A DNA stretch of 64,000 bases from a virus (taxonomy: Duplodnaviria; Caudoviricetes), in IMG/VR virus record IMGVR_UViG_3300019288_000050, positions 3,150-67,149 of that record; one strand, given 5' to 3'. Below, one piece after another: positions 27,024 through 46,697 of the stretch (its first letter is position 1; the number at the start of each line of letters is the position of its first letter). A program made the position numbers and the translations under genes. A model generated the notes under the pieces. That model was not told the origin of the DNA and searched no databases. It worked only from the letters and a program-made list of their open reading frames with translations.

Positions 27024-27077
27024 AAAGCCACAAGAGCTTCATGACCCCGACAAGGGTTGTGAGGCTCTTTTTGTTTT
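27024..27077 (+). terminator. Conserved late-operon leader-terminator, copy 2
   Basis: AAAGCC AC AAGAGCTTCAT GACCCC GACAA GGGTT GTGAGGCTCTT TTTGTTTT; promoter TAACTTTG 26996-27003. Confidence 0.8.
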
Positions 27078-27565: not shown

Positions 27566-30500
27566 GGGGAAAGACAATCAATTAAAGGCTACCATCAATT
27601 CGCTTGAATACAACGGCGAGTGGATGGGCGAAAGCTATGTGACCGTCACTGTCGAGTCGCCCGCGCCTGTCAACTTCGAGATAGGCGATTACATCATCTA
27701 CCGTGACGAGCGGTTTGAGATAAACTACAACCCCGGCAAAATCAAGTCGGCTCCCCGATATGAAAAGGGGGATGCGTTCAAGTACGAGAACATCAAGTTC
27801 AACTCGCTTGCAGACGAGCTGACACGGTGCGACTTTCTTGACATAGTGCTTAACGACAATCAGCTTCACTTCACGGGATTGCCGAAGTTCAGCTTCTATG
27901 GGGGCGTGAAAGACCTTGCCAACCGTATGCAAGCCAACCTTGACCGCACCTATGGAAAAGGCTCATGGAGCGTTGTGGTGTCGCCCGAATTTCAAAGCAC
28001 CAAGGAGCTGAATGTGCAGGTTGACAATATTAAGGTTCAAGGAGCATTAGAGATACTTGTCAACCAATTTGAGACCTACTACACCATATCGGGGCGCACA
28101 ATCACAATCGGTGCGGCGGGCATTCCGGCAGGGCATCTGTTCAAGTATGGCAAGGGCAACGGACTCTACGAGATTGAGCAGAATGCCGAAGCAGACCAAG
28201 CCATTGTAACGAGAGTACGTGCCTACGGCTCTACCCGGAACCTGCCACACCGATACTATAACTCCCTTTCGGGCGCAGACGGTCAGAAACTCATACCCGA
28301 CAACATGGCGGTGCAGAACCTCATGTTGCCGGAGTTTCCATATACAACCCAAGACCCCTATATCGACAGCCCGAACATCGCCAAGCTCGGAATCCGAGAG
28401 GGGACGGTATTCTTTGACGGCAGTGGCGAGCTTGAAGAAATCTATCCCTCAATCGAGGGCATGACTGCGGAGCAACTGAAAGCCGCAGGAGTACCTTGTA
28501 ATTCTACGGGCGCACTTGACGAGATTGTGAGTGCGGAGCAGATGACCGACAACGGCGTTGGTGAAATCAACGAGGGTGAGACACAAACCACTGCCAAGCC
28601 TCCGACATTCAAGGTCACACTCAAAGACCTCGGCTTTGATATAAACGACCACAAAACGACTGAAACGGCTACAATATCATTCAAGACGGGTATGCTTGGC
28701 GGTCGTGACTTCGAGATTGTCGGCTGCAAGAAGATAGAATCGGGCGGCAAGGTCACGGGCTACGAGCTTGAACTGAATCGTGTGTATGACGATGGCATAA
28801 AGCTGTGGTTCCCATACTCGGCATACAACGCCAAAGCCGGCGACAAATTTGTGCTTCTCTACATCAAAATGCCGGAGGTGTATATCAAGGCTGCGGCTCA
28901 GAGGCTCAAAGAGGCTGCAACGGAATGGCTGTCGAAGAATGACTATTCCCGCTCTATTTATGCTCCGAAAGTCGATGAGATTTTTATGGCACGTCAGCAT
29001 GACCTCGCAATGGCTTCGGGCGGCAAAATCAAGAGTCTGCACGACACTCTCAAAGAGGGTATGCTTCTGCTGTTCGAGGACGAGGATTTGAACATTGACG
29101 CTTCCATCTTCATTGACCGCCTTACAATTAAGGAGGAGGGGACAGTGCCGACATACGAGGTCGTACTGAAAGAGGAAAAGACCGTAGGCCGTCTCGACAA
29201 GATGCAGAATCAGATTGATTCGCTTGCGGCAGGGAAAGGGCAGGGTGGCGGAGGCTACACCGCAGCGCAGATACGCTCGATGATTGAGGCGTATGGTGAT
29301 ACGCGGTTTCTGTCTAAACTCAAAGACGATAGAAGCCAAGGGCAGATAGCGTCGGACAAGGCATTCGAGGTGGGCGATTTTCTTGCGGGGGTGTCGGGCG
29401 CGAAAATCGGTAAGGATGCCGAGACCGGGCAGACGTTTGGCGAGATGGATAGGCTGTTTGTCCGCGTCAAGGCTTATTTTGATACTCTCACGATTATAAA
29501 CGCGGAATCTCTCGCCGGAGAACAGCGCATCGCTCCCGGCGGAGGTGTGAAGTGCACATCTGTCGAGGAACTTGACGATGCTTACCGATGCTACTTCCTC
29601 TCCGAACAGGACGGCGAGAAAACCGAAACGAAAATCATAGCGGGTGACCAAGCGATAGCGCAGATGTTCAACGCCAAGACCGGGACTTCCAACAAGGTAA
29701 GCAACCACCGCTACTGGAGACTCGTCACTGCGGTGAGCAATGACGCATATGCAGACAACTCCGGCAACCGTTACGGCTATATCGACCTCTCAAAGACCGA
29801 CTGCGAGAAAGGCAGCGACATACCTCAGGCAGGTGACACCATCGTACAGTTTGGCAACCGCACAGACCGCACGCGTCAGTCGGCGATGGTGTTCAGCACC
29901 GTGGATGCAGATGCGCCGTCCATCAAACTGTTTGCCGGCATAGACTCCTACACCATTGCGGACAAGGATATAATCTCATACGGCTACGACCCTGTAAAAG
30001 GCAACGCATATTTCAACTGTTATGGCGACACTTACATCGGGGACCGCGACGGGACTACTTTTATAAAATATGACCGTGCCACGAAGACGCTCGATGTTAA
30101 AGCGAGGATCTCCGTCACGTCCACAATCGGCGGTACCAACATAAACGATTTTGTAAACAACGCTGCTCAGTCGGCCGCCGACAAGGCAAAGGCGGAGCTG
30201 CAAGCGAATATCGACATCCTTCAGAATCAGGTTGACGGTGTTATCGAGAGCTTCAACGGGTTCGGGGCGCCCACGCTGACGAACTACCCTGCGAACGAAT
30301 GGACCGCCGACGCAGAGCGCAGTCGGCACGACCGCGACATATACACGGACATCACGCCTTACGTGGACGACGCGACGACGCCTACGAGCGGCCAGTCGTG
30401 GAAGTGGTACTACAACTCGCCAACCGACTACGGCTGGGTGAAGATAGCGGACTCGGACGCAGTGAAAGCGCTGCAGCTTGCCACGATGAGCGTGCGCGAC

Positions 30501-33500
30501 ACCGACGTGCTGTACATATCGCACGCTTCGCCGCTGCAGCAGGACGCGCCGGCGCTGCCGGCTGTCAGTCCGGACGGCGTCATCACCGACTCCAAAGGGT
30601 GGCAGACAAAGGCGCCGGAGTGGCAGGACGGCCGCTATATCTGGCAGACCACCTATGTGCGCCGTGGCGACGGCTCGGCGTCGTTCTCGGACCCCACGTG
30701 CATACAGGGCGCCGACGGGCGTCCCGCCCGTCGTATATACCTGCGTGGGACGCAGATGAACCATACGGGCGCACCCCAGCTCAAGGTCGACGGGGCGTAT
30801 ATATACAACTCGGCATCGGGCCGCGGTGTGAGGCTTGTCACCCTCGACCGTCAGACGCTGGCAAAGGTAGATGATACCACCTACGACACCTACAACTCCC
30901 CGGCCAACCGCGCCAGCCTCGCAGCCAGGCTCGAATCGCTTGACGATTCGGTGTTCGTGACGCTGACGTCGTGGGACGCGATAGGTATGGACGCGGCCCT
31001 CAACGCGGCCCTCAACAGGTTCGGCGGTATGTTCAGCGACGTGTTCGGGGGCGACCGTCGCGCCCTCGCCTTCATCGGCTACAAGGGGCTCGGCCAGGGC
31101 TACGCGCAGTGTGTAATGGACAAGTCCGCCGGAACGGCGGCATCGGCCTATGCCGAGGTGTCGGTCTACGTGGCCGACGGCATGTTCACTACGTCGAAGA
31201 CCGCCGTGGGCATCGACCGCATCACCGAGCAGTACTACCTGTCGACATCGCGCACGCAGCTCCAGGGCGGTTCGTGGAGCGACACGCGGCAGCCGTGGGT
31301 TGCGGGGCGCTTCTACTGGACGCGCACGAAAATCACCTACACCGACGGCTCCGTGGCCTACAAGGGGGAGATATGCGCCACCGGCGAGGCGGGCGCGGAC
31401 GCGCCGAACCTGCTGCAGCGCTTCTCGGCGACGGGCGGTGCTTACGCGTCGGAATGGCATCCGTCGTACCTCGACGGCGACGTGTGGATGCAGACGTCCG
31501 CGGACGGCGGGGCCACATGGAGCGCGCGCATGCCCGTGGGACGCGGCGGCTACAGCGCCAACCTGCTCGAAGGCACGTCGGACGAGTGGCATGAGTTCGC
31601 ACTGGGCATGTACGCTTTCATATACGCGCACATCCCGCTTTCCGACCTCGGGCTGGAAGCCGGCGACATGTTCACCTTTTCGGTGGATTACCGTACGGGT
31701 CCTTCCGGCAAAGGCCTGCGCGTGGGCGTCGAGGCCTACAACAGCGAGGCCGACAGGGTTCTGGTGGCCCGCGGCAACACCGTGCGCGACGGCGAGGGGC
31801 GCGCTTGGTGCTCGGGTACGGTCCCGTCCGGGTATGCCGAGCTGCGTCTGCGCCTTGAAAACGCCGACGCGGCCATCAACACCATGAGCACCGAGGAATA
31901 CCGCGGGCTGAAGCTGGAGAAGGGCAACAACCCGAACCCCGTGTGGACTCCCGCCGCCGGGGAGATGGTCGGCAGGGACGGGCAGTGGCAGAAGTTCCAG
32001 TGGGCCAAGGGCACCGACGCCACAAAAGAGCCGACCGGCGGATGGAGCGACACCCCCGTGTCCGCGCTCCCTGGCGAGTACGTGTGGATGCGCAGCGGCA
32101 CCGTGGTGCCCCCGGCCGCCGAACCCGCGAAGTGGGAGCGTGCGGTGAGACTGACGGGCGACACCGGAGCCGCCGGCGGCGACGTGTACCGCCTCGACCT
32201 GGACAACGAGCGCGCCGCCGTGGCGTGCGACGCCGCAGGCAACGTGACGGGCCCTTACCCGTCGGCCGTGGCTTCCGTCTACAAGGGTTCCGTGAAGCTC
32301 GCCGACGGGGTGGCGTTCAGCGTGGCGGGGCAGACGGGCATATCCGCGTCCGTGTCCGCGTCGGGAGTCCTGTCGCTGTCGGCCATGACGTCCGACACGG
32401 CCGAGGTGGTGTTGCAGGCCGTGGCGGACGGCGTCACGCTCCAGAGCCGCATGAACCTTTACAAGGTGAGGCCCGGCAGCAGCTACACCGAGAACCTCGT
32501 CCTCAAATCCGGCGAGGAGGTGTCGTCCGCGGACTACGGGTTCAGGGTGTACGAAGTCAGCGGGGAGCTCGTGGAGGGCGAGACCTACACGTGGACGATA
32601 TGGGGGACTCCCGGCGCCGGCCGTTGTTTCCGCATATACCCCACGGACTGGAACGGGCGCATAGGCGACCCGGCGCAGCTGTCCGAGGGCGTGTACTCGA
32701 TGACGGCCAAGTGGAAGCGCAACGCCGCAGCCCGCAAGGACGCCTTCATGGTGCTGGCCGCGCCGCACGACGCCACCACGGTGTCCACGATACACAGGAT
32801 AAAGGTCGAACGTGGCGCCAACACGTCGCCCGTGTGGAGCCCCGCGCCGTCGGAGATGACGGGCGAGGACGCCGTGACCTACGACCTCCAGCCGAGCGCG
32901 GGCGTGATAAAGCGCGGCATGACGGGCGAGCCGGACGTGCGGGAGGTCTCGTGCGGCGTCTACAAGAGCGTAGGTGCCTCCCGCAGCCTCACCGGCGAGA
33001 AGACCCTGCGCGTATGGCGCATAGGCGAGGACGCTGCCGAGTCTACCATAGCGCACACGGGCGGGCAGTGCGCCCCGGTGGCCGTGACGGCCAGGACCGG
33101 GCAGGTGGTGTTCTCGCTCTACGACAGCGACACGCTGTTCGACGAAAGCACCCTGCTTGACCGCGAGCGCGTGCCTGTGGTGTCCGACGCCTCCGACCTC
33201 GAAGTCGGCGGCACGAACATGCTGCCCGGGACGAAAGGGTGGGCAGGGTGGATAAAGCACGGCTACGCGCTGGCCGGAGGGACGTACAACGGCCTCGGGG
33301 TGGCGCACCTCGCATACCCCGCAGGCGCCGCCGCAGGCACCGCCTACGACCTTAAGATGACGGGCCTCGTCCTCGAGCCGGACACCGTGTACACGCTTTC
33401 CGTGTGGGCGTACGGCACGGGCAAGTTCATATCCTATGTGTGGCCGGACGTCGGCGGGCGGACGTATTCCGTCAACGGCGTGCCGTCTGAGGCCACAGGC

Positions 33501-35195
33501 GGCACCATAGAGGGGGTGAACACGCTGACGGCGAAGTGGCGCCGCTACTGGGTGGTGTTCCGCACGCGCGGCGGGTCCCTGACCGACAAGAGCGCCTTTT
33601 TCCGCCTGGAGCGTCACGGCTCGGATGTGTGGCTCGCCGGCGCGAAACTCGAGAAGGGCAACGTGCCCACGGACTGGAGCCCCGCGCCCGGGGACGTCGA
33701 GGCCGAAATCTCGAGTTTCGACTACCTGAAAGACGCCATAAGCAACGGGGCGACGCAGTTCCAGGGCGGACTCGGGCTGATGCAGATGCTGCGCCTCGGC
33801 TCGTGGAACACGGCGGACCCCGACAATCCCGTGATGGTGAACGTGATGGCGGGCATGAACGGCAAGTATGTCAACGGGCGCACGCCTGCCATATGGTGGG
33901 GCGGCGACATGGTGGACCGTTTCAACGACGACGACACCCTGAAAAACCCCGTGCCGTCCAATGCGGCGTCGGGCCTCGTGCGCATGGACGGCTCGGGCTA
34001 CATGTCGAACGGGCTGATATGGTGGCGCGCCAACGGCAGCGGGGGCGTGGCGGGCTCCAACATCACGTGGAACACGCTCGGGAGCGTGAGCCTGGGCGCG
34101 GGCATTACCATAGACGCAACAAGCGAGGCCGGCATACAGAACACGCTCGGCGACATACTCCAGTTCATAAACGGCATCACCAAGTTCCTCGTGCCTGCCA
34201 AGGCGGACGGGACGGAGCTTGCGTGGAAGGACTACAAGGAGGGCGTCCAGCTGAAGGCGCGCATGAGCCTCTTTTCCGCCGACGGCGTGGCCGCCCTCGG
34301 CATGGGTCCGGAGATTTCCGGCGGGGCAGTCGGCCAGTCCGTGGAGCTGCTGACCGACTGGAGGCACGACCCCGCCGGCAAGGCCCTGGGCGCCGTCCTC
34401 GGCGTCGAACTCCGCGACATCGCCGACCATGCCGACAGCACGGCCGCGTCGGCGGAACTGAAAGCTTCCAACGCCGGCGTACGCGTCACCGGCCTCGAGG
34501 GCAGGCTGTCGCGCCTGTCGCGCCGCACCGTCGACAGGCACGTGCGCCGCGGCATCATGCCGCTGAACGCGGAACCGGGCATAATCTACAGGAATCAAGG
34601 CATCGCCAAGATGCGCATTTCCAAACATCCGGGCAGGTACACAGTCGACCTCGGCGAATACCTGCCCCCGTCGGTGGCGGGCGCGGCCGAAGTGCATCTG
34701 CGGGCGGGCGCCGCCGCCGTCGACGCGCCCCCGTCGGTGGCGGTGTTTTCACGGAGCGGCAACAAGGTGACGGTCGACATCCTCAGCCAGTATGCCGTCG
34801 CGGGCTATCCGGCCTGCATCATGCTTCACGTGTCGTTCCGCATGGACTGCAGATACCTGACGCGCTCCGGGCGTACCGGATACATAGCGTCCGCGGACGG
34901 CAGCGGCGTGCTCGAGGAACCCCTGCCGCCAAAGCCCACGGCCGCCGAGATACAGGAGATTCTGACGGGGCAGGGCCCCATGCCGGCCGGCTTCGAGGTG
35001 CAGCGCAGGCGCAGGTTCCTCGGCGGCCGCAAGCCCGGCAACCACGGGGCGTACGTCTACAAATGGTGCCTGCCAATGAAAGGAGGATACGGCATAGGCC
35101 TGTGGCGCGTGAGGCGGCGCACGCACAACCACGGCTACGCGAGCGGATGGGTGTATGCTATGTGCGGTCGCGGGGAAATGAAGATACTGTGGTGA
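27552..35195 (+). CDS. Large tail hub/fibre protein (about 2550 aa)
   Basis: N-terminal hub region (IVTRVRAYGSTRNLP), collagen-like GxDG linkers, an ILEI/GG-like domain and three CBM-like repeats ending KxEKGN..W(S/T)PA. Confidence 0.85.
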   Translation: MWEIKGKDNQLKATINSLEYNGEWMGESYVTVTVESPAPVNFEIGDYIIYRDERFEINYNPGKIKSAPRYEKGDAFKYENIKFNSLADELTRCDFLDIVLNDNQLHFTGLPKFSFYGGVKDLANRMQANLDRTYGKGSWSVVVSPEFQSTKELNVQVDNIKVQGALEILVNQFETYYTISGRTITIGAAGIPAGHLFKYGKGNGLYEIEQNAEADQAIVTRVRAYGSTRNLPHRYYNSLSGADGQKLIPDNMAVQNLMLPEFPYTTQDPYIDSPNIAKLGIREGTVFFDGSGELEEIYPSIEGMTAEQLKAAGVPCNSTGALDEIVSAEQMTDNGVGEINEGETQTTAKPPTFKVTLKDLGFDINDHKTTETATISFKTGMLGGRDFEIVGCKKIESGGKVTGYELELNRVYDDGIKLWFPYSAYNAKAGDKFVLLYIKMPEVYIKAAAQRLKEAATEWLSKNDYSRSIYAPKVDEIFMARQHDLAMASGGKIKSLHDTLKEGMLLLFEDEDLNIDASIFIDRLTIKEEGTVPTYEVVLKEEKTVGRLDKMQNQIDSLAAGKGQGGGGYTAAQIRSMIEAYGDTRFLSKLKDDRSQGQIASDKAFEVGDFLAGVSGAKIGKDAETGQTFGEMDRLFVRVKAYFDTLTIINAESLAGEQRIAPGGGVKCTSVEELDDAYRCYFLSEQDGEKTETKIIAGDQAIAQMFNAKTGTSNKVSNHRYWRLVTAVSNDAYADNSGNRYGYIDLSKTDCEKGSDIPQAGDTIVQFGNRTDRTRQSAMVFSTVDADAPSIKLFAGIDSYTIADKDIISYGYDPVKGNAYFNCYGDTYIGDRDGTTFIKYDRATKTLDVKARISVTSTIGGTNINDFVNNAAQSAADKAKAELQANIDILQNQVDGVIESFNGFGAPTLTNYPANEWTADAERSRHDRDIYTDITPYVDDATTPTSGQSWKWYYNSPTDYGWVKIADSDAVKALQLATMSVRDTDVLYISHASPLQQDAPALPAVSPDGVITDSKGWQTKAPEWQDGRYIWQTTYVRRGDGSASFSDPTCIQGADGRPARRIYLRGTQMNHTGAPQLKVDGAYIYNSASGRGVRLVTLDRQTLAKVDDTTYDTYNSPANRASLAARLESLDDSVFVTLTSWDAIGMDAALNAALNRFGGMFSDVFGGDRRALAFIGYKGLGQGYAQCVMDKSAGTAASAYAEVSVYVADGMFTTSKTAVGIDRITEQYYLSTSRTQLQGGSWSDTRQPWVAGRFYWTRTKITYTDGSVAYKGEICATGEAGADAPNLLQRFSATGGAYASEWHPSYLDGDVWMQTSADGGATWSARMPVGRGGYSANLLEGTSDEWHEFALGMYAFIYAHIPLSDLGLEAGDMFTFSVDYRTGPSGKGLRVGVEAYNSEADRVLVARGNTVRDGEGRAWCSGTVPSGYAELRLRLENADAAINTMSTEEYRGLKLEKGNNPNPVWTPAAGEMVGRDGQWQKFQWAKGTDATKEPTGGWSDTPVSALPGEYVWMRSGTVVPPAAEPAKWERAVRLTGDTGAAGGDVYRLDLDNERAAVACDAAGNVTGPYPSAVASVYKGSVKLADGVAFSVAGQTGISASVSASGVLSLSAMTSDTAEVVLQAVADGVTLQSRMNLYKVRPGSSYTENLVLKSGEEVSSADYGFRVYEVSGELVEGETYTWTIWGTPGAGRCFRIYPTDWNGRIGDPAQLSEGVYSMTAKWKRNAAARKDAFMVLAAPHDATTVSTIHRIKVERGANTSPVWSPAPSEMTGEDAVTYDLQPSAGVIKRGMTGEPDVREVSCGVYKSVGASRSLTGEKTLRVWRIGEDAAESTIAHTGGQCAPVAVTARTGQVVFSLYDSDTLFDESTLLDRERVPVVSDASDLEVGGTNMLPGTKGWAGWIKHGYALAGGTYNGLGVAHLAYPAGAAAGTAYDLKMTGLVLEPDTVYTLSVWAYGTGKFISYVWPDVGGRTYSVNGVPSEATGGTIEGVNTLTAKWRRYWVVFRTRGGSLTDKSAFFRLERHGSDVWLAGAKLEKGNVPTDWSPAPGDVEAEISSFDYLKDAISNGATQFQGGLGLMQMLRLGSWNTADPDNPVMVNVMAGMNGKYVNGRTPAIWWGGDMVDRFNDDDTLKNPVPSNAASGLVRMDGSGYMSNGLIWWRANGSGGVAGSNITWNTLGSVSLGAGITIDATSEAGIQNTLGDILQFINGITKFLVPAKADGTELAWKDYKEGVQLKARMSLFSADGVAALGMGPEISGGAVGQSVELLTDWRHDPAGKALGAVLGVELRDIADHADSTAASAELKASNAGVRVTGLEGRLSRLSRRTVDRHVRRGIMPLNAEPGIIYRNQGIAKMRISKHPGRYTVDLGEYLPPSVAGAAEVHLRAGAAAVDAPPSVAVFSRSGNKVTVDILSQYAVAGYPACIMLHVSFRMDCRYLTRSGRTGYIASADGSGVLEEPLPPKPTAAEIQEILTGQGPMPAGFEVQRRRRFLGGRKPGNHGAYVYKWCLPMKGGYGIGLWRVRRRTHNHGYASGWVYAMCGRGEMKILW

Positions 35196-35303
35196 CGGCA
35201 CAAAAAAAGCGACCCTCAGAACGGGGATACTGCCTGTAGACACACAACCCGTCCGGATGTCGCAGTGCAAAGATAGCAATAAAAAACGTAACGGCAAAAC
35301 ATT

Positions 35304-36617
35304 ATGGCGCAGATGACAGACAAAGAATACGTGAGCGTGGCCGGCGTGGCGTCGGCGCTCGGGGTGGCGGCCGACACGCGTGCCCGCCAGGTGGGCTACC
35401 TGTGCGGCAACGCCCACGGACTCATAAACATGTGGGCGCGGGGCAAGCCCGTGCGCTACCCGTCCACCATGCCGCTTTCAGACGGGCAGAGAAGCAAGGC
35501 CGACCAGGGCCTCGTGCCGCCCGACGGCGGACAGGCAGGCACGCCCGTGTCCGGGGAGTGGATGGAAAAGGTGTGGCGGTACGCCCCTCCGCGCGGCGGC
35601 GCCGACGAGCCTTACAGGCTTTCGGACTTCCTGCATTACGACCCGGACGCGCGCCCTCCGGTGTCCACTCCCGGCACGCAGTACATAAGCCCGCTCGACA
35701 GCGGCTCCGCGCTTCGCTTCAGCTTCGGCGCCTCCCTGTCGTCTATTGCCGGCACCGGCGACCTGACGCTGGGAGACTTCGATTACCTCAAAAACTATTA
35801 CCCGTGCGTGGCGCTCAACTTCGGCGACGGCTTCGTGCGCTGCATCACTGGCACGCGCAGGTTCGGCGAGGCCGGGCCGTCCCTTGTCAACCTGCCCGTC
35901 AGCGCCCTGCTCGGGTTCGCCGCCGGGGAGTTCGAATACTTCATGTGCGGCTGCTCCGTGTGCCAGACGGCTCTCGGCGTCCCGCCGTCGGCCGCCTATG
36001 TGGTGCTGCCCTCGGAACGTCCGCTCAGAGACCGCATCGTCGTGTCTTCCGGACGTGTGCTGGACGTGTATTTCGAGCGCGTGACGCCCGGCATCCTCGG
36101 CAGCGCCCTTATGTTCCGCGGGGAGCCCGTCTCCGACTACAACCCCGCAGGAGGCATCGTGCCCGACCCCGGCACGGGCCCCGGCGGCCCCATGCCCGCT
36201 TACCGCTACCTGAACGTCGGCGGCACGTACGGCCGCTCCACGGCGTCGTTCAGCATGCGCGTCACCAACCCGAACATGAAGGCTGTCAGCATCCCCGCGT
36301 CGGCGCTGAAAGCGTCCGTGTCCGGCAACCTCGCCGGCAAGACCACCATCCCGGCCCCCGTGCCCGCCCTGAAGCGTTTCAAGGGCGAAGGCAGCGTGAT
36401 GGAGTCCGCCGGAAGCATATCCCTGGGTCCGGGCGAGTCCGCCCGTTACGCAGTGTCGTGGCCCGAGAACTGCTGCATCATGGACGAGCGCAACCACACC
36501 GTGCAGCTCGGCGACACCAGGAGATTCAACGCCGGCTTCAGCCTCCTTTACAACAGCGGCTCCACCACCGTGCGGCTCGGCAGCGTGGGCATCAACATAA
36601 GCAACTACGACGTATGA
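35304..36617 (+). CDS. Tail fibre-associated protein
   Basis: 437 aa; VSVAGVASALG...INMWARGKPVRY N-terminus typical of Bacteroidales phage fibre-associated proteins. Confidence 0.6.
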   Translation: MAQMTDKEYVSVAGVASALGVAADTRARQVGYLCGNAHGLINMWARGKPVRYPSTMPLSDGQRSKADQGLVPPDGGQAGTPVSGEWMEKVWRYAPPRGGADEPYRLSDFLHYDPDARPPVSTPGTQYISPLDSGSALRFSFGASLSSIAGTGDLTLGDFDYLKNYYPCVALNFGDGFVRCITGTRRFGEAGPSLVNLPVSALLGFAAGEFEYFMCGCSVCQTALGVPPSAAYVVLPSERPLRDRIVVSSGRVLDVYFERVTPGILGSALMFRGEPVSDYNPAGGIVPDPGTGPGGPMPAYRYLNVGGTYGRSTASFSMRVTNPNMKAVSIPASALKASVSGNLAGKTTIPAPVPALKRFKGEGSVMESAGSISLGPGESARYAVSWPENCCIMDERNHTVQLGDTRRFNAGFSLLYNSGSTTVRLGSVGINISNYDV

Positions 36618-36637: not shown

Positions 36638-36973
36638 ATGACAAACGTATCATTCAAAGACATCCTTAACGCCACCGTCCATGCCGACAACTCGTCGGAC
36701 ACCGGGCGCACGGCGGACGTTTCCGCCGACGTGCAGTTCTCCGGTCGCGAGGCCACGGGCTTCATCAACGGCATCGCGCAGCCCACCGGCAGCCCCGGCC
36801 CCGTGTGCCAGTTCTCGGAAAGCCGCGGACACAACCTGTCCCTGACATTCATCGGCTACCCCGACGCCGTCAGCCGTCTCGACACCCTGCGCGCCGTCGA
36901 CGCGTTCATCGCCGGGGTGCGCGAATCCGCGCCGTCCATACTCGGAATGGGGAGCGGCGAAGACAATAATTAA
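36638..36973 (+). CDS. Hypothetical protein (possible fibre chaperone)
   Basis: 111 aa between fibre and endolysin genes. Confidence 0.5.
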   Translation: MTNVSFKDILNATVHADNSSDTGRTADVSADVQFSGREATGFINGIAQPTGSPGPVCQFSESRGHNLSLTFIGYPDAVSRLDTLRAVDAFIAGVRESAPSILGMGSGEDNN

Positions 36974-36997
36974 ATAAAAAAACAGACTTGTAGAGAC

Positions 36998-37432
36998 ATG
37001 AGATATTTTACATTCACCGAGTTCGAGCGCTCGGAAACCGCGACAAAATATGCCATAGACAATTCTATCCCGGACAAACTGAAATACAATGTGGCCGCGC
37101 TTGTAGACAAGGTGCTCGACCCTCTGCGCGAGGCGTGGGGAAAGCCGATAACGGTTACAAGCGGCTACCGCTGCAGCGAGCTTAACGCTAAGACTCCGGG
37201 GGCATCACGCACATCACAGCACATGACTGGCGAAGCCGCCGACATCTCTGTAGGAAATCAGTTAGATAACCGCCGTCTCGCCCAAAAACTGCTTGACCTC
37301 AAACTGCCCTTTGACCAGCTCATCAACGAGCATGACTGGCAATGGGTACATGTGAGTTATCGCGACGGTCATAACCGTCACGAAATGCTCAAGACGGTGC
37401 CTGGAGGTTATGTTAAAATCAGCGCGTTATGA
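36998..37432 (+). CDS. Endolysin, peptidase M15A
   Basis: LDPLRE, TSGYRC..LN, SQHMTGEAAD, WVHVS. Confidence 0.9.
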   Translation: MRYFTFTEFERSETATKYAIDNSIPDKLKYNVAALVDKVLDPLREAWGKPITVTSGYRCSELNAKTPGASRTSQHMTGEAADISVGNQLDNRRLAQKLLDLKLPFDQLINEHDWQWVHVSYRDGHNRHEMLKTVPGGYVKISAL

Positions 37433-37980
37433 CTCCCCGCGACAAAACCAATCAGCCGGGAGTGTGTACAGCCCTGCTTGTAGCTATCCTCATGCTTCTT
37501 GCAGTGGCGGTCATGGTGTCGGGATGCTCGCCTACGAAGTATGTACCGGTGGAAACGGTGCGGACGGAATACGTCCATGCCGACACCACGGGGCTGTATG
37601 AGCGCCTGCGCAGCTACTTCGAGTCGATATACCGCAGGGAGACATCGACCGATTCAGTGATTGACCGCACAAAGGAAACTGTGGTGCTCAAAGAGAACGG
37701 CGACACCGCACGTCATGACAAGGAACGCATAGTGTATGTCGCATCCCACCGAGAAAAGGAGCTTGAACACAAGGTGCAGCAACAGGACAGCACAATCAAG
37801 TCCCTACGCCTGCAACTTGAATCGGTGAAGTCAGACTCCATCCCGGTGCCCTATCCGGTGGAGCGCGAACTGACGAAGTGGGAGCAGACCAAGATGGACT
37901 TCGGAGGCTTCGCACTCGGCGGACTCGTAATCGGGCTAAGTATCGTCGTATTATGGTTAATCAAGAAATTCAGAAAGTAA
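37429..37980 (+). CDS. Unimolecular spanin-like lipoprotein
   Basis: Lipobox VSGC and C-terminal TM GGFALGGLVIGLSIVVLWLIKK, located between endolysin and holin. Confidence 0.7.
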   Translation: MTPRDKTNQPGVCTALLVAILMLLAVAVMVSGCSPTKYVPVETVRTEYVHADTTGLYERLRSYFESIYRRETSTDSVIDRTKETVVLKENGDTARHDKERIVYVASHREKELEHKVQQQDSTIKSLRLQLESVKSDSIPVPYPVERELTKWEQTKMDFGGFALGGLVIGLSIVVLWLIKKFRK

Positions 37981-37989
37981 TATATTGTA

Positions 37990-38481
37990 ATGGAAACTTA
38001 TATCGAAATAATCAAACTCGGCATGGGCGACTACTCGCTTCATCATCTTGTATGGCATCTGACAATAGTGGCGTTCTGCATATTCGTTACAGGGCTGTTT
38101 TCTATCGCTGACACCGCAAGCGGTATTTACACAGCGAAAAAAACTGGAGAGAAGCTACGCTCGCACCGTCTGCGCAAGACCTTTGAGAAAATGGCGGTCT
38201 ACTGGTTCTTTCAGATACTCGTGGGTGTGGTGGGGGTTGTTTTCTCGCTGTTTCCGTGGTACAATCTGCCCTATATGTCAATCATATTCGCGGCGATGAT
38301 ATGTATCGCCGAGGGACGTTCCATGTGGGAGCATAGCCGACGGCGCAAGGACAATGTGGCGAAAGTCCCCGAAGCCGTGCAGGAGCTGATTGACCTTGTG
38401 GGCGGCGAGGAGGAACTAAAGCGCACGCTTATAACCCTCGTTCAGAAACGTCTCGGAGTGGAGGGCGGGACTCAGACGTAA
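37990..38481 (+). CDS. Holin
   Basis: Three hydrophobic segments; IADTASGIYTAKKTGEKLRSHRLRKT pattern. Confidence 0.75.
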   Translation: METYIEIIKLGMGDYSLHHLVWHLTIVAFCIFVTGLFSIADTASGIYTAKKTGEKLRSHRLRKTFEKMAVYWFFQILVGVVGVVFSLFPWYNLPYMSIIFAAMICIAEGRSMWEHSRRRKDNVAKVPEAVQELIDLVGGEEELKRTLITLVQKRLGVEGGTQT

Positions 38482-38542
38482 AAAATAGCCCTCATAAGCA
38501 CTTAGAACCGAAGCCTTGGCGGGATTTTTCGGTTGAGCATGA

Positions 38543-38606
38543 CGCTCTGCGTTACAAGGACTATATGGTGGATAATTCCTATCGTATAAACCTATAACGC
38601 AGAGCG
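38543..38606. repeat. 12-bp inverted repeat / long hairpin
   Basis: CGCTCTGCGTTA (38543-54) and TAACGCAGAGCG (38595-606), 40-nt spacer. Confidence 0.7.
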
Positions 38607-38646
38607 ACGCGCTCTGTTCATTTCCAACCGTTAAACTTCCCGAATA

Positions 38647-38961
38647 ATGCCACGAATCTTAGAATACGCATCATCCGTGATTGACCTTGTTGCCGACGAG
38701 CTTGAAGTCTCCCGTGAACTTATCCTTTCCAAATCCCGCACAGCCGAGGCGGTCGATGCTCGGCATCTCGCCATAAAGCTGCTCCACTCAAAAGACATAT
38801 ATCCGTCACGGATAGCTGCGATATTCAGAATGTCGCCAAGAAGCGTCAGACATGTAATAACAGCCTTTGACGCTCGTGTTCAGGCAAATAAATCATTGGG
38901 ATATAACTTGGCAAAAATCAGGAAACAGCTCGGAGAAAGTTCGGACATAACGCGGAAATAA
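38647..38961 (+). CDS. DnaA/TrpR-like HTH protein
   Basis: VADELEVSRELILSKSRTAEAVDARHLAI...SRIAAIFRMSPRSV resembles the DnaA C-terminal HTH. Confidence 0.65.
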   Translation: MPRILEYASSVIDLVADELEVSRELILSKSRTAEAVDARHLAIKLLHSKDIYPSRIAAIFRMSPRSVRHVITAFDARVQANKSLGYNLAKIRKQLGESSDITRK

Positions 38962-39040
38962 TTCCTTTTGAACCAATACGTTGAGAGGTAATTTTGCATC
39001 ACGGAGCAATGTTTCTCCGCAATGTAAAACTAATCTCAAT

Positions 39041-40000
39041 ATGGGAGAGAATAAGACTTCTATTTTCACTTTTCCTGACGCGGGCGCGGCTGCCACGAAC
39101 AACAGCCTTGCCGCGATGCTTCCCGCCCTGTTGCAGAACCGAGGCATAGACAGCGCCGCCCTCATGGGCATGATGGCCAACGGCAACAACGGCTTCTTCG
39201 GCAACAACGGAGGCTTTCAGGACATCATCGCCCTTATCGTGATTGCCGCAATCTTCGGCAACGGTAATTTCGGCTTCGGCGGCAACGGCAATGGTCGCGG
39301 CGACACCGAGCGCCAGATGCTCATGGACGCTATCCAGCGCAACGGCATCGACATCAGTCAGCTCGCAAGCTCCGTAGGATGCTCAAAAGACCAGATTCTC
39401 GCGGGCATCAACGGTGTGTCAAGCGCAATATGCGGTCTCGGCAATCAGATGGGTCAGAACACCAACCAAATCATCACCACGCTCATGCAGGGCAACAACG
39501 CGCTCGCAAGCCAACTCGCTCAGTGCTGCTGCGAGAACCGCCTTGCAATCTGCCAGCAGACCAACACCCTCACCAACTCCATCAACGGAATCAACACAGG
39601 CGTTGAGCGCGGTTTCTCCGCACTCGGTTATGCGCTCGCCGAACAGAGCTGTCAGAGCCGTCAGAACGCGGACGCCAACACCCGCGCCGTCCTTGCAAAG
39701 CTCGACGCGATGGAAGACAGCCGCAAAGACCGAGAAATCGCGACCCTCACCGCACAGCTCACCGCAGCCAACAGCCGCGCGGAGCGCCAGGCAGAACTTG
39801 CGCCCATCTATCAGCAGTTGAGCGAAATCGCATGTAACCAGCCCCCGGTGAAGAAAATCTGCTGCCCCGAACAGTACGTGCCGGTGAACACAGGCATCAA
39901 CGCCATGTACGGGCTTATCCCAACCGGTTGCGGCAACGTGTTCGCGGGCGCTTTCAATCCGTTCGTAGGTTTCGGCAACGGCACAGGGTCATTCTTTTAA
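39041..40000 (+). CDS. Gly/Asn/Gln-rich coiled-coil protein (spore-coat-like hypothetical)
   Basis: 319 aa; NGNNGFFGNNGG low complexity, hydrophobic IIALIVIAAIF, QCCCENRLA; promoter TAATTTTG 38989-96. Confidence 0.7.
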   Translation: MGENKTSIFTFPDAGAAATNNSLAAMLPALLQNRGIDSAALMGMMANGNNGFFGNNGGFQDIIALIVIAAIFGNGNFGFGGNGNGRGDTERQMLMDAIQRNGIDISQLASSVGCSKDQILAGINGVSSAICGLGNQMGQNTNQIITTLMQGNNALASQLAQCCCENRLAICQQTNTLTNSINGINTGVERGFSALGYALAEQSCQSRQNADANTRAVLAKLDAMEDSRKDREIATLTAQLTAANSRAERQAELAPIYQQLSEIACNQPPVKKICCPEQYVPVNTGINAMYGLIPTGCGNVFAGAFNPFVGFGNGTGSFF

Positions 40001-40018
40001 TTTAGGGAGGGCTGTGAT

Positions 40019-40345
40019 ATGGTAAACATAAATGGCATCCCATGCATCAACTCTACCGGCGTGGCTGTGTCAACGGCCAACGTGACGTACTCGTTCGACA
40101 ATTCGCGCGAGATTCCGTTTGCCGGGCTTGTCCTTGTGAGGTTGCAACAGGCAGTCCCGACGGGGACAACCGCCACCCTCCCGGTATTGTTCGGCAACGC
40201 GCCTCTGACCGGCTTTAACGGAGAGCCTGTGACTGCCGCCAACCTCAGCGGCACGGGCATATACGTGGTCTATTACAACAGCCGCTCGAAATTGCTCCAG
40301 CTGCTGACGGGCATCACGCCCACGGCCACAGCCCCGACAACTTAA
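40019..40345 (+). CDS. Small beta-rich protein
   Basis: 108 aa with alternating hydrophobic strands. Confidence 0.65.
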   Translation: MVNINGIPCINSTGVAVSTANVTYSFDNSREIPFAGLVLVRLQQAVPTGTTATLPVLFGNAPLTGFNGEPVTAANLSGTGIYVVYYNSRSKLLQLLTGITPTATAPTT

Positions 40346-40366
40346 CAATAATCAAAAGTAACAACA

Positions 40367-40915
40367 ATGAGTTTTTCCAACCTTAGGGGTTCTTCCCTTT
40401 TGTACATCCTCAACAAGGAGGGCGTGCCGAGCGTCAATGTCGGCACGGTGATCAACGTGACCGCGCCCTATGGCAAATACGGCAATATGGCCATGGCTTT
40501 CGGGCAGCAACCGGAGCAGGTCGTTGACCTCACAGTGAAAGTCGATGACAAGCAGGGTCAGTTCTTCAAAGTTCCCGCCAATGCAGACGTTTGGGAATAC
40601 GAGAACAACGGCATCAAGACGCAGTATGTTCTCGCCACAAGCAAGGACGCAATAAACGCGGCTGTCAACAACCTGCGCCAACAGGCCGTGGACATCATCA
40701 ATTCGGTCGACCACAACAGACAGGTGGTGGCCGCGTGCGACGAGATGCTGAAACAGCTCAACCCCGAATTTGCCGAGAAACAGCGGCAGGAGCAGGAGAT
40801 AAGCGAGCTGAAACAGCAGCTTGCCACCCAGCAATCGCAGATGGCGGAGCTTATCGCCCTGCTAAAAGGTGGTAAGGAGTCCCCTAAGGAGGAAAGACCC
40901 GCTAAAAACAAGTAA
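40367..40915 (+). CDS. Hypothetical protein with C-terminal coiled coil
   Basis: 182 aa. Confidence 0.65.
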   Translation: MSFSNLRGSSLLYILNKEGVPSVNVGTVINVTAPYGKYGNMAMAFGQQPEQVVDLTVKVDDKQGQFFKVPANADVWEYENNGIKTQYVLATSKDAINAAVNNLRQQAVDIINSVDHNRQVVAACDEMLKQLNPEFAEKQRQEQEISELKQQLATQQSQMAELIALLKGGKESPKEERPAKNK

Positions 40916-40918
40916 ACT

Positions 40919-41251
40919 ATGGGTTACATGATACAGATAGAAGAAGATTCCGCCATGGAGCTGAAAGAGCACGCCAAGAAAGCGTTGAAGCACATGGGCA
41001 AGCTCATGGAGTGCGTCGAAGAACTCTGTGAGGAATCCCAGATGGGCGAGCGCGGCGGCTACGGCAATCGCGGTGGTGGCGGCAGCGGTTACGGAAGCCG
41101 CTACGGCAACCGTGGTGGCTACTCCGGCGGTTCGGACGGTGGCTACGGCAACCGCATGGGTTACCGCGACGAGGAATGGGATGATGAGGATGACGACTTC
41201 GGCGAGCGCAGAGGTCGTAGTTCTCGTACCGGGCGTTACGTGCGCCGATAA
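40919..41251 (+). CDS. Gly/Arg/Tyr-rich low-complexity protein
   Basis: RGGYGNRGGGGSGYGSRYGNRGGYSGG...RRGRSSRTGRYVRR. Confidence 0.7.
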   Translation: MGYMIQIEEDSAMELKEHAKKALKHMGKLMECVEELCEESQMGERGGYGNRGGGGSGYGSRYGNRGGYSGGSDGGYGNRMGYRDEEWDDEDDDFGERRGRSSRTGRYVRR

Positions 41252-41316
41252 TTAACCGTGGGGCAACTTGTCGAAAATATCGATAGGTTGCCCCTTTATT
41301 CCTAAACTGAAAGAAT

Positions 41317-41742
41317 ATGAAAAGAACCCCACTTGATATGTTTGAGATAAACCTGCCCGACGGCATGAGGTCTTACCTGCGCAATTATGGGTACTCATTC
41401 GGGAAAAAGGCTTGCATGGAAGCGGTCAAAAAACTCAAGCGTCTTAATCCTGCTACTGGCAAGATGGAAACTCTTGAAGCTCTAAATAAAGAGCAGGTCG
41501 AAGAAATGCTGACGAAACATGGCATTAAGTTGGAGCATAACGTCGGCTACGATTTCGTCTATGCCGCCAACTACGGAAAGGCTGTGCATTATAAGTCAAG
41601 CATCACTGACGAGAAGCAGCTTGCCCTCTATGTGAAAGACCGTATTGACAACCCTCTAATGCCGGGTGGCAATGAGTTTCGCGAGTGGCTTGTAAGGTGT
41701 GATGCTCTTGGCATTCCTGTTGACTGGGACGAAATCTTATGA
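41317..41742 (+). CDS. Hypothetical protein
   Basis: 141 aa helical. Confidence 0.65.
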   Translation: MKRTPLDMFEINLPDGMRSYLRNYGYSFGKKACMEAVKKLKRLNPATGKMETLEALNKEQVEEMLTKHGIKLEHNVGYDFVYAANYGKAVHYKSSITDEKQLALYVKDRIDNPLMPGGNEFREWLVRCDALGIPVDWDEIL

Positions 41743-42149
41743 TACGCCAAAACATCTACCTTGAACGTGCGCACGGCTGGCGGGTGACTTGTTACTTCGC
41801 CGTGACGCATTATGAGGTGGAGGAAATCATGCAGCGGCTTATCGAGGCTGGCTGTGAGGGCGATAACCTGCAAACCGCCTACGACAACCTTTGCTCGGAC
41901 AGTCTCAATACGGGGCTGTGCTATTCGGGTAACGGCGAAAGCGTGTTGGTGGTGAGTTGCGCCACGTCGCCCTCTCAGCTACTCAATAGTATTTTCCACG
42001 AAAGCCATCATCTTAGCTCTATGATAGCCAAAGCGCTTGGCTGGGACTTGATGGGCGAGGAAGTGTGCTATCTGTCGGGCGAGATAGGACAACAGATGCA
42101 CCCCGTCGTGAGCCACTATCTGTGTGGGCATTGCCGAAGCAACGTGTAA
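41739..42149 (+). CDS. HExxH zincin-like metalloprotein
   Basis: IFHESHHL followed by GEEVCYL. Confidence 0.6.
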   Translation: MIRQNIYLERAHGWRVTCYFAVTHYEVEEIMQRLIEAGCEGDNLQTAYDNLCSDSLNTGLCYSGNGESVLVVSCATSPSQLLNSIFHESHHLSSMIAKALGWDLMGEEVCYLSGEIGQQMHPVVSHYLCGHCRSNV

Positions 42150-42202
42150 AGAAAACTGCAAATTCTTTACACATAAATCAAACATATAAAAATTCTTTAC
42201 AT

Positions 42203-42448
42203 ATGAACTCAAAAATCGAAGCAAGGATAGAGGCGGTGAAGCTCGCCCTTAACGTGGAGGGTGTCACCTCTGAAAACATCATTGAAGTCAGCGAGAAAAT
42301 CGCCTCATTCATTATCGGTAATGCGGAGTTGCCCGACAAAGACCCCTCCGATGACATGCAGAAACGCATGATGGATATGGTGACTGGGGCTTACAACAAT
42401 CTCTCCGCATCAAAAGTATCAACCGAAACACCCTCAGAGAATGGATAA
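42203..42448 (+). CDS. Hypothetical protein
   Basis: Start MNSKIEAR; preceded by TTCTTTACA repeats. Confidence 0.55.
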   Translation: MNSKIEARIEAVKLALNVEGVTSENIIEVSEKIASFIIGNAELPDKDPSDDMQKRMMDMVTGAYNNLSASKVSTETPSENG

Positions 42449-42555
42449 GACTCAAAGAATCGCGACACGTCGCGCCCTGCTTTTCGACATTCCCAAGCAG
42501 AAACCGTTGTTAGACTTTACACCTCTTATGGCACTCGTAACTCTTTTCAAATCTT

Positions 42556-42759
42556 ATGGCATCCGCAAATAGACGCAATCGCCGGGCCAATGGCATGAAA
42601 GGTTCGACCGTCCGTAAGGCTCTGGAGAGCGGAACATCGCTCAACTCGCTCTATGCCCTTATACCTGAAAACCGCCACAAGGCTCTCGACCTATTCCTGC
42701 GGATGTTTGGAAAAAGTCCCGCAGATTTGCATGAGGCGTTGGAGAGGGAACGGTCATAA
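42556..42759 (+). CDS. Hypothetical protein
   Basis: 67 aa. Confidence 0.45.
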   Translation: MASANRRNRRANGMKGSTVRKALESGTSLNSLYALIPENRHKALDLFLRMFGKSPADLHEALERERS

Positions 42760-42831
42760 ACGACAAACGCGCCTGCCCTTTTGGGACAGACGCGCATATC
42801 TGTGTGAGCCGCGAGGAAACTTGCGGCTCTT

Positions 42832-43716
42832 TTATTCAACATTCTCTTTGAGCCATTGCTGAAAATACCACAACTGGCCACAGCCGCCTCCAATGTCATC
42901 CTGCCCTGCGGGGTTGAACACTCGCAGTGAGAAACCTTTGTCAAGCATGAGCCTTTGAAAACCACTTATCAGGTCAAGTTGCCTTTCGATAGAGCTTTTC
43001 ACACTCTCTGACTTCTGACATATTACGGAAAGAGTCACTTCCCACACATCGGGGTTGAATATCTTTGCAAGCCGTTCCGCATCCTCGGGCGTTGAGTTGT
43101 TCGCATGGACGCAGTAGTTGAAGAATGGTCTACGCCCCGTGAATGCCGCCCACATTTCGCCGAGGGATGCGATTTGGCGCAGTGTGCAGGTGTCGGTGGG
43201 TATCAGTTTTGCCCTTGCTTCATTGGTAGATTCATGCACGGAGAATTGGATGCCTACTTGGGGCAATCTCTGACTTAGGGCTATGAAGTCGCTCCAATGC
43301 TGTTCCGTACCAAATGGAGCTGATGTTGACACAAGAAGCTGTGCGTTTGAATATTCATTAGCTAATAAGGCTATAGCTATACGCAGTTCGTCATAGTTAT
43401 CCATTGGCTCTCCCATTGACATGAACATTATCTGGAATTTCTCGATTTCAGATGTGTCACAGTCAATGGTTGATAGAACTGTCCTGACCTGTCTTTGTAT
43501 CTCAAACCATTTCAGATTTCGCACAAAGAACTTGCCCGTTCCGCAGAACTTACAGCCGACCTTGCAGCCGGACTGAACGGAGCAGCATATCACCGTGCGC
43601 TTACGGTATTCGCCATAGCGGTAAAGGACGGTCTCGGCTATCGCCTTAGGCTCGTCGAATTCGAACACGAATTTCTTCACATTGGTGTCCGAACTTTCAA
43701 AAACTTGGTATTTCAT
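42832..43716 (-). CDS. RlmN/Cfr-like radical SAM methyltransferase
   Basis: ICCSVQSGCKVGCKFC (CxxxCxxC), MGEP, FSVH, DIGGGCGQL. Confidence 0.85.
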   Translation of the reverse strand: MKYQVFESSDTNVKKFVFEFDEPKAIAETVLYRYGEYRKRTVICCSVQSGCKVGCKFCGTGKFFVRNLKWFEIQRQVRTVLSTIDCDTSEIEKFQIMFMSMGEPMDNYDELRIAIALLANEYSNAQLLVSTSAPFGTEQHWSDFIALSQRLPQVGIQFSVHESTNEARAKLIPTDTCTLRQIASLGEMWAAFTGRRPFFNYCVHANNSTPEDAERLAKIFNPDVWEVTLSVICQKSESVKSSIERQLDLISGFQRLMLDKGFSLRVFNPAGQDDIGGGCGQLWYFQQWLKENVE

Positions 43717-46102: not shown

Positions 46103-46697
46103 GTATTTTTATGAAGTTGGCTTTCTTGAATATCCAGTCGAAACCGACCTTGACCCATTCCCTTGCGAGAAAGTCGGATGCAACCACTTTATGTACTACG
46201 GTCTCCACGGTCTCTCTGTCATATTCTTTGAAGATAGAGCGTAAAGCGTTTTTGCGTGCGTCGGTCAACTTTATCAGTCGCGGAATCCCGGTGCTGCTGA
46301 TTACATCGTTGAACCATTCACGGAAACGTTCAAATCCGTCTTGCGGCTGCGTTGTTCTTTTTGTAGCTTTTGTTGGTTGGCTTTTGGTTGGCTTTTGGTT
46401 GCTTATTGGTTGGTGAGTATTATTAACACGCTGAAAATCAAATGTGATATTGGTTGACTTTTGGTTGCTTGCTGGTTGGATGCTGGTTGCCAGCCCGTTT
46501 TTTTGCATTTTGCCGAGCATAGTGCGCAACCTTTGCCGGGAGATACCGAAACGCATCTCTATATCGGCGGCGGTGAATGTCGCGACTCCGCGATGGTCGG
46601 TTCTTGAAAGTAAAAACCATAACAGGCAACCATACTCTTTGTTTCGCCACAACTCGTCGCCGAGCGCCGAGCGCGGAAGCCGGATGAAGTCGCTCAT
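45987..46697 (-). CDS. Replication initiator (lambda O-like organisation)
   Basis: N-terminal winged HTH, central QP repeats, C-terminal FDWIFKKANFIKILEGNY; adjacent to the loader gene. Confidence 0.8.
   Translation of the reverse strand: MSDFIRLPRSALGDELWRNKEYGCLLWFLLSRTDHRGVATFTAADIEMRFGISRQRLRTMLGKMQKNGLATSIQPASNQKSTNITFDFQRVNNTHQPISNQKPTKSQPTKATKRTTQPQDGFERFREWFNDVISSTGIPRLIKLTDARKNALRSIFKEYDRETVETVVHKVVASDFLAREWVKVGFDWIFKKANFIKILEGNYDNRNTQTQTEDKYSARRGTDVGNHTPDDYEGAF
46373..46491. repeat. Iteron-like TGGTTG repeats within the initiator gene (candidate origin)
   Basis: About 8 copies at 11-12 nt spacing in two groups separated by an AT-rich gap. Confidence 0.65.

Follow-up and report, generated by a model that had tools for sequence, protein, structure and literature searches.

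The stretch of DNA analyzed here, hereafter the window, comprises 64,000 nucleotides (positions 3,150 to 67,149) of the IMG/VR virus record IMGVR_UViG_3300019288_000050 (Duplodnaviria; Caudoviricetes) and is most of that 67-kb provirus record, for which CheckV gives a completeness of 96%. Downstream of its lysis genes lies a cassette of small, tightly packed genes, named c1 to c9 below, whose central members form a real, widespread, and co-conserved module with its own promoter-like site, tied to no known kind of system. Comparisons of the cassette proteins with characterized systems in Pfam, PHROGs, NCBIfam, solved structures, and the PADLOC defense models gave no match, in line with a first-pass annotation that called the cassette unexplained, and nothing on this module was found in the literature. 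All cassette genes named in that annotation are present on the + strand at the coordinates it gave, and the cassette and its control elements are as follows:

38647-38961, + strand: c1, small helix-turn-helix protein, DnaA domain IV-like
38967-38996, + strand: promoter-like site (TTTG, 18 nt, TAATTTTG)
39041-40000, + strand: c2, 319-aa Gly/Asn/Gln-rich protein (phrog_16490)
40019-40345, + strand: c3, 108-aa stand-alone protein with a Thr/Ala-rich tail (phrog_31654)
40367-40915, + strand: c4, predicted SH3/KOW-like barrel with a helical hairpin (phrog_28898)
40919-41251, + strand: c5, [YMF]GxR-repeat protein, from homologue alignment and motif count
41260-41294, + strand: 15-bp GC-rich hairpin followed by TTTATT, a candidate terminator or attenuator between c5 and c6
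41317-41742, + strand: c6, DUF7841 protein (Pfam)
41739-42149, + strand: c7, putative minimal zincin-type metallopeptidase (HExxH), its start overlapping the c6 stop
42203-42448, + strand: c8, small protein found in close relatives only (L001, L003, L005)
42556-42759, + strand: c9, small basic protein found in close relatives only (L001, L003)
42767-42829, no strand assigned: back-to-back terminator hairpins that close the + strand operon and a convergent - strand operon

Co-conservation of the genes, on which their treatment as one unit depends, is well borne out. Profile searches with models built from the cassette itself recovered the order c2-c3-c4-(c5)-c6-c7 in about 40 loci, essentially all of those long enough to show an order. 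Of the loci fetched, 14 came from viral contigs and 23 from species-representative genomes, the latter mainly Bacteroidales metagenome-assembled genomes (Alistipes, Prevotella, Paludibacteraceae, and Bacteroidaceae), a few of them probably mis-binned. About half of the loci have a c1 homologue ahead of c2, and in the complete phage Dulem virus 40 an identical arrangement follows the holin gene. Mean pairwise identities over nine shared loci (seven for c7) are 49% for c2, 34% for c3, 35% for c4, 45.5% for both c5 and c6, and 40% for c7, making c2 the most constrained member and c3 and c4 the least.

The module extends well beyond close relatives of the window phage. A tblastn search of GenBank phages with c2 returned 30 records, including Crassvirales of the Steigviridae, Suoliviridae, and Intestiviridae, an epsilon crAss-like phage, and the cultured Bacteroides phage C3_41T2LP. 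In cr116_1 (Steigviridae), c2, c4, and c7 are present, small genes without a match stand in the places of c3 and c5, and the module has the holin/L,D-carboxypeptidase genes on one side and the gp31-like gene and the capsid gene on the other. In phiCrAss001, a phage of the same subfamily, gp30, gp31, and the capsid gene follow one another uninterrupted, and profile searches of its whole 102.7-kb genome found neither c2 nor c4. As the virion structure of phiCrAss001 has been solved, the absence of the module from this phage argues that it is no core part of the virion.

Four Loutivirinae (cr4_1, cr52_1, cr53_1, and cr109_1) carry a rearranged version, with genes for a holin, a LysB-like protein, and a 200-aa protein followed by c2, c3, c4, and virion genes. 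The 200-aa protein of cr109_1 (L053:3108-3713), the one checked, belongs to DUF7841 (E 1.7e-43) and has, fused to it, an acidic c5-like tail that is rich in Arg, Tyr, and Gly and ends in GRSVRYIRY, and the gene at the c3 position of the same phage encodes a c3 homologue (hhalign probability 98%). The parts thus stay together despite reordering and fusion, which suggests that function, and not ancestry alone, keeps them joined; for a shared function this rearrangement would be stronger evidence than synteny alone. The cr109_1 protein is annotated as 'RNA polymerase sigma factor/ubiquitin-like protein', and no sigma-factor signal was present among 28 sipho-type c6 homologues scanned. Judged from gene content and order across these carriers, the module is a self-contained accessory operon that is mobile between Bacteroidales phages, neither a core virion part nor a set confined to lysogens.

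Promoters of the primary sigma factor of Bacteroides have the form TTTG at -33 and TAnnTTTG at -7. The promoter-like site that the first-pass annotation had placed ahead of the packed genes recurs across the family: between -120 and +30 relative to the c2 start, 19 of 25 loci have a -7 box, where the background frequency of the motif in this same DNA would predict about 8% (binomial tail 2e-16, for loci that are not fully independent). No copy of the late-operon leader of the window (27024-27077) occurs upstream of the cassette. At the other end of the c2-c5 block, a hairpin with a z score below -2 occupies the c5-c6 gap in 18 of 20 loci (median z -4.8), with hairpin sequences that are unrelated to one another; in the window it ends 22 nt before the c6 start, which leaves no space for a promoter there. 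We read this arrangement as probably one transcription unit with an internal attenuator, from which c2 to c5 would be made in larger amounts than c6 and c7. At the motif level the cassette thereby has the promoter and terminator of its own that mark a moron, a self-contained gene carried as an insert by a phage, in the form of the -7 box before c2 and the hairpins after c5 and c9.

The c1 protein was described at first pass as DnaA-like, and the Pfam model Bac_DnaA_C does align with it at E 2.8e-7 and 30.9 bits, just under the cut-off of 31.5. NCBIfam DnaA models match its C-terminus only and are the sole NCBIfam match of the cassette. By this resemblance c1 is likely a regulator.

The c2 protein has the composition first ascribed to it, with 30% Asn, Gly, and Gln and 11 cysteines that include a CCC run, as well as the hydrophobic segment. 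In alignment, eight cysteines are conserved (CCC at 162-164), a long helical region leads to a Gly/Asn/Phe-rich tail, and the glycine-flanked hydrophobic segment at residues 58-73 is nearly invariant among homologues. More than 5900 homologues were found, none of them named, and an AlphaFold2 model made from 36 sequences consists of helices only, one of them about 100 residues long, at a predicted local distance difference test (pLDDT) score of 44. Searches against holin families in Pfam, PHROGs, and NCBIfam gave no match, PF28217 is assigned to some homologues, and ESM Atlas queries with c2 and c3 returned unnamed viral clusters only.

A likeness to proteins labeled spore-coat had been proposed and is not supported: no spore-coat family (Cot, exosporium, or Ena/DUF3992) was reached at E <= 1 in Pfam or NCBIfam, and no such name occurs among the listed homologues or cluster members. 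GenBank records label c2 homologues 'spike protein/glycoprotein' or 'outer capsid protein/viral fiber', probably because of the weak HA2, HEF2, and sigma-1 matches (E 0.03-0.2, coiled-coil level) that the c2 profile gives against solved structures. With HA2/HEF2 and reovirus sigma-1, c2 shares a hydrophobic stretch rich in Gly that has a heptad-repeat helix after it; however, the E-values are non-significant, the matches are confined to composition-biased or coiled-coil parts, and no evidence of homology was seen.

Longer fused forms of c2 were not found, which is weak evidence. In-frame fusions of c1 with c2 occur in two different lineages, as P0146 (465 aa, three contigs) and P0155 (437 aa, two contigs), with the spacer read through; they could be assembly or gene-calling artifacts. 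If real, they would tether a DNA-binding domain to the c2 N-terminus, which would then be cytoplasmic (N-in).

The partners of c2 are small and varied. A c3 profile search gathered 340 representative clusters of 66-191 aa, all stand-alone and with zero fusions; most members have about 105-170 aa, and the family as a whole centers on roughly 110 aa. The AlphaFold2 model of c4 (pLDDT 84) has a six-stranded barrel at residues 11-90, probably of the SH3/KOW/Tudor kind, then a helical hairpin (residues 93-169) and a tail rich in Lys. Its top fold match, domain I of EF-P (Z 7.4, root-mean-square deviation 1.7 Å over 59 residues), may, its Z being under 8, by the tool's own calibration be no more than a common arrangement. 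The N-terminal domain resembles EF-P domain I, the eIF5A N-domain, and Tudor-like small barrels in fold; it differs from them in lacking sequence similarity, and neither the hairpin nor the Lys-rich tail of c4 has a counterpart there. Foldseek with this model found nothing in the PDB at E <= 0.001 and uncharacterized phage proteins only among viral models, and the c4 profile reached CdvA at a non-significant E 0.29 against solved structures, where the c3, c6, and c7 profiles had no useful match. Weak PHROG matches of c4 to scaffolding and minor head families (E 0.01-0.09) and two PADLOC matches at coiled-coil level (E 0.0017 and 0.013) complete its record; the other cassette proteins had no match to the PADLOC models. 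One c4 homologue, from a Bacteroidaceae metagenome-assembled genome (G002:C6:147938-148432), contains an in-frame TAA, which could mark a pseudogene, a sequencing error, or stop-codon recoding.

The description of c5 as a disordered protein of the RGG/YG type agrees with its make-up. A conserved Cys lies in its N-terminal helix, the [YMF]GxR motif occurs seven times, an acidic patch is present, and the C-terminus is basic. With 22% Gly, 13 Arg, and 8 Tyr it shares, by composition only, the low-complexity Arg/Gly/Tyr region of FUS-like phase-separating proteins; the repeat and a C-terminal GRYxR(R) are conserved in the alignment. Neither a signal peptide nor a conserved lipobox Cys is present in the c3, c4, and c5 alignments. 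A prediction of the complex of c2(85-300), c3, c5(1-50), and c4 scored 0.00, which is no answer and counts as evidence neither way.

The last two conserved members are of a different kind. All 28 homologues of c6 match DUF7841, which the window protein itself matches at E 2.1e-15 (57.4 bits, cut-off 25.2). The HExxH noted in c7 proved to be invariant: H87, E88, H91, and E107 are retained in 28 sequences of about 40% mean identity, giving the HExxH...E pattern of zincins, so that c7 is a putative zinc protease. Its N-terminal strands and CxxC-like C-terminal motif are family-specific, and the window protein has no match in Pfam. Among the 28 homologues, DUF6782, Peptidase_M78, SprT-like, and MPTase-PolyVal are matched weakly by 6, 4, 3, and 1, respectively (best E 0.0019-0.11, all sub-threshold), and 'PolyVal metallopeptidase' is the annotation that the C3_41T2LP homologue carries. 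Like these zincins of mobile elements, c7 has an invariant HExxH, a Glu 15 residues downstream, and a length of about 135 aa; unlike any one of the named families, it has no Pfam match that reaches the cut-off or is common to most homologues.

The sole functional lead obtained is the proximity of the module to lysis genes. In the window, Dulem virus 40, cr116_1, cr273_1, the four Loutivirinae, and the contigs L003 and L011, the module has a holin, endolysin, or LysB-like gene no farther than about 3 kb away, in cr273_1 a downstream endolysin gene, so that the association spans at least four separate lineages. In eight further loci the genes upstream of the cassette mostly have no PHROG match, and the association is not countable there. 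In the window, the order upstream of the cassette on the + strand is the giant tail-protein gene, a gene at 35304-36617 (437 aa; no match in a PHROG search), and three lysis genes:

36998-37432, + strand: endolysin, Peptidase_M15_3 (Pfam E 1.4e-19, above cut-off)
37429-37980, + strand: unimolecular-spanin-like protein, with a lipoprotein signal (..VSGC) at the N-terminus, helices in the middle, and a membrane segment at the C-terminus
37990-38481, + strand: holin, Phage_holin_4_1 (Pfam 25.6 bits, cut-off 22.2)

The spanin-like assignment, which we infer from this domain layout, concerns a protein with homologues upstream of the cassette in L001, L003, and L011, and the Dulem virus 40 homologue of the third protein is annotated as a holin.

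The first-pass annotation had further proposed that the module is active in lysogens, and this part of its view fares poorly. Crassvirales carry the module beside lysis and virion genes, a solid c4 match occurs in only 2 of 301 evenly sampled Bacteroidales genomes, and no RNA run gave RNA specific to lysogens. The RNA data are assembled contigs, in which gaps of cover prove nothing and depth can neither rank genes nor separate lysogeny from lytic growth. In these terms, contigs identical to the window in run X7, a mouse-gut metatranscriptome, cover the lysis genes and pieces of c2, c4, and c5, and contigs of run X10 cover tail and lysis genes and leave c2-c5 uncovered. In another run, contigs from a related phage extend over 39437-41257 and stop just short of the hairpin; a word depth of 25-29 over c2-c5, compared with 3-4 elsewhere, is a weak hint only. 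A convergent integrase gene lies downstream of the module in four prophage loci.

Taken together, these observations are tentatively explained by a membrane-anchored assembly that is active in lytic growth and tied to lysis or egress, a reading we favor while regarding it as somewhat short of probable. The host-type promoter before c2 would drive four non-enzymatic proteins, c2 to c5. The glycine-flanked hydrophobic segment would take c2 into the cytoplasmic membrane, from which a long, cysteine-carrying coiled coil would extend. As a small and variable stand-alone partner, c3 would join it, c4 would supply an SH3/KOW-like barrel with a helical hairpin, and c5 would add a disordered chain in which the [YMF]GxR motif recurs and whose basic C-terminal peptide is conserved. 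The conserved hairpin would reduce read-through into c6, the DUF7841 protein, and c7, the small zinc metallopeptidase, which may process a component of the assembly or a host target. The assembly of c2 to c5 would form during lytic growth and would work at the envelope in lysis and egress or on their timing, with the unit regulated by c1 or another small DNA-binding protein. In line with the self-assembly suggested earlier, the products look non-enzymatic and assembly-prone, with a coiled coil expected to insert into the membrane (c2), a strand-rich-looking c3, a barrel-hairpin protein (c4), and a disordered repeat protein (c5), followed by a putative zinc protease; the lysogenic setting given to them is not supported.

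Several observations weigh against this reading. No cassette protein resembles a known holin, antiholin, spanin, or endolysin in Pfam, PHROGs, NCBIfam, or structure profiles, and the phage is already equipped with genes for a holin, an endolysin, and a spanin-like protein. Because c3 to c7 are without signal peptides, they would be unable to meet a periplasmic domain of c2, and the model of c2 itself is poor. In C3_41T2LP the module follows RecT and a Holliday-junction resolvase, and in csAssE-Sib it follows an antirepressor, with no annotated lysis gene nearby in either; in several prophages the upstream genes are of unknown function and an integrase lies downstream. The proximity to lysis genes may also arise only because accessory genes gather at the end of late operons.

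A more specific version of the favored reading, a membrane-anchored assembly in lytic growth, is a good deal less probable. The module would here be a previously undescribed Bacteroidales phage machine in which a cysteine-linked membrane assembly of c2 coiled coils, loaded with c3, c4, and the Arg/Gly/Tyr repeat protein and matured by its own zinc protease, controls how and when virions exit. If true, this could mean, for example, release short of full lysis, or delayed lysis, and could be relevant to how crAss-like phages and their hosts coexist over the long term.

Other explanations must be weighed against an assembly tied to lysis or egress. Closest to the first-pass annotation is the proposal that c2 to c5 self-assemble into a filament, lattice, or condensate in or on the cell, expressed from the prophage with c7 as maturation protease and c1 as regulator. 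The amino acid composition and cysteines of c2, the c5 repeats, and the Tudor/SH3-like barrel of c4 with its hairpin would suit such a structure, and the moron layout, the adjoining integrase in four prophage loci, and the weak hint from contig depth would suit its expression in lysogens; yet the module is embedded among lysis and virion genes of crAss-like phages and is rare in Bacteroidales genomes, and homology to known assembling families, whether bactofilin, R-body, spore-coat, or others, was not found. The proposal is unlikely. No likelier is a conflict system, expressed early or constitutively, that acts at the membrane in superinfection exclusion, phage competition, or counter-defense. 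Conflict genes are often sited near tail-fiber and lysis genes in T-even, lambdoid, and HK97-like phages, as the module is, and such a system would suit an accessory unit that moves between unrelated phage families, has its own host-type promoter, and includes a membrane protein and a protease. In c3 it also has a most variable member (34% mean pairwise identity, against 49% for c2), as an arms race would predict for such a part. Against this stand PADLOC matches limited to coiled-coil noise, the lack of a nuclease, ATPase, or nucleotidyltransferase, a set of six co-conserved genes that is large for an exclusion system, and a conservation of c2 that is unusually high for a conflict gene.

Optional virion components, whether decoration, internal, or ejection proteins, with c4 scaffold-like, c7 a maturation protease, and c5 a basic internal protein, seem slightly more doubtful still. 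The module lies within late or structural gene blocks, c4 has its weak matches to scaffolding and minor head families, and other phages have ejection proteins that are rich in Gly, mostly helix in structure, and able to insert into membranes. It is, however, missing from phiCrAss001, common to phages with different tail-gene sets (crAss-like phages and the window phage with its tape-measure gene), and found among recombination genes in C3_41T2LP, and a host-type promoter with an internal hairpin would be unusual within a structural operon. Very improbable is a repressor-protease switch of the ImmR/ImmA or IrrE/DdrO type, in which c1 and c7 control induction and the other genes are passengers. 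Weak matches to Peptidase_M78 (IrrE-like) in 4 of 28 c7 homologues (best E 0.002) and the small DNA-binding protein that often precedes the module are countered by the absence of c1 from about half of the loci and of c7 from the Loutivirinae, by the fact that c1 and c7 are never adjacent, by the standing of c2 to c4 as the most constant members, and by the presence of the module in crAss-like phages, which as far as we know rarely lysogenize.

Among known systems, the module shares features with two groups. In having a single N-terminal hydrophobic segment followed by a long helical region with cysteines, c2 is like i-spanins and the single-pass holin T of T4, and in adjoining a holin, endolysin, or LysB-like gene in several lineages the module is like phage lysis accessory genes. 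It differs from the spanins (lambda Rz/Rz1 and T1 gp11), T4 T, and the antiholins RI and RIII in having no sequence or profile similarity to them and a c2 of about twice the size; it has no partner with a lipoprotein signal, the lipobox protein being the separate gene at 37429-37980, and unlike lysis accessory proteins it has four to five extra cytoplasmic proteins and a metallopeptidase co-conserved in a phage whose lysis set is already complete. Morons and lysogenic-conversion cassettes such as lambda bor and lom are comparable in having a host-type promoter and a terminator-like hairpin, in following the lysis genes, in being integrase-adjacent in several prophages, and in being accessory and mobile, whereas the module has six co-conserved genes in place of one or two and is found also in crAss-like phages.

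Some features of the surrounding DNA lie outside the module. The spacer between the holin gene and c1 contains an 11-bp inverted repeat (GCTCTGCGTTA / TAACGCAGAGC; 38544-38605) with a 40-nt loop, and the X10 RNA contig over the lysis genes terminates within it, at 38587; an Rfam scan of 36900-43000, this repeat included, gave no match. Beyond the cassette, the first gene of the convergent block (42832-43716, - strand) encodes a protein of the radical-SAM type (Pfam Radical_SAM, E 4.7e-7). Within the early region on the minus strand, 46373-46490 holds clustered short direct repeats of TTGGTTGG/CTTTTGGTTGC units, with four 30-nt copies; they are iteron-like and may be an origin or a regulator-binding array. 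The GC content is 0.64-0.68 within 30000-36000, over the gene for the 2549-aa tail protein and the next gene, compared with 0.41-0.53 over most of the remaining window.

Virion genes are dispersed in blocks on both strands (1-1203, - strand; 2945-7257, 27546-35195, and 56728-63228, + strand). The first block holds the probable capsid gene, the second encodes a terminase of 913 aa as well as the portal, the third the giant tail protein, which the lysis genes accompany, and the distant fourth a 2166-aa tape-measure protein; replication, methylase, and Ro60 genes lie between them. In Dulem virus 40 the capsid gene is on the minus strand immediately upstream of the terminase gene when the record is read across its ends, and by synteny 1-1203 on the minus strand is the probable capsid gene of the window. 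The idea that c2 to c5 are the missing capsid genes of the phage was rejected, as the capsid gene is located elsewhere.

CrAss-like and other phages of Bacteroidales are among the most abundant viruses of the mammalian gut, and how Bacteroidales gut phages lyse their hosts, persist, and are released is a poorly understood field. As C3_41T2LP is cultured on Bacteroides uniformis, the function of the module is testable by deletion. Should the module act on the envelope or on lysis timing, it would be a new component for the lysis paradigm of Bacteroidota phages; should it do something else, it would still be a new conserved system, with a role for DUF7841.

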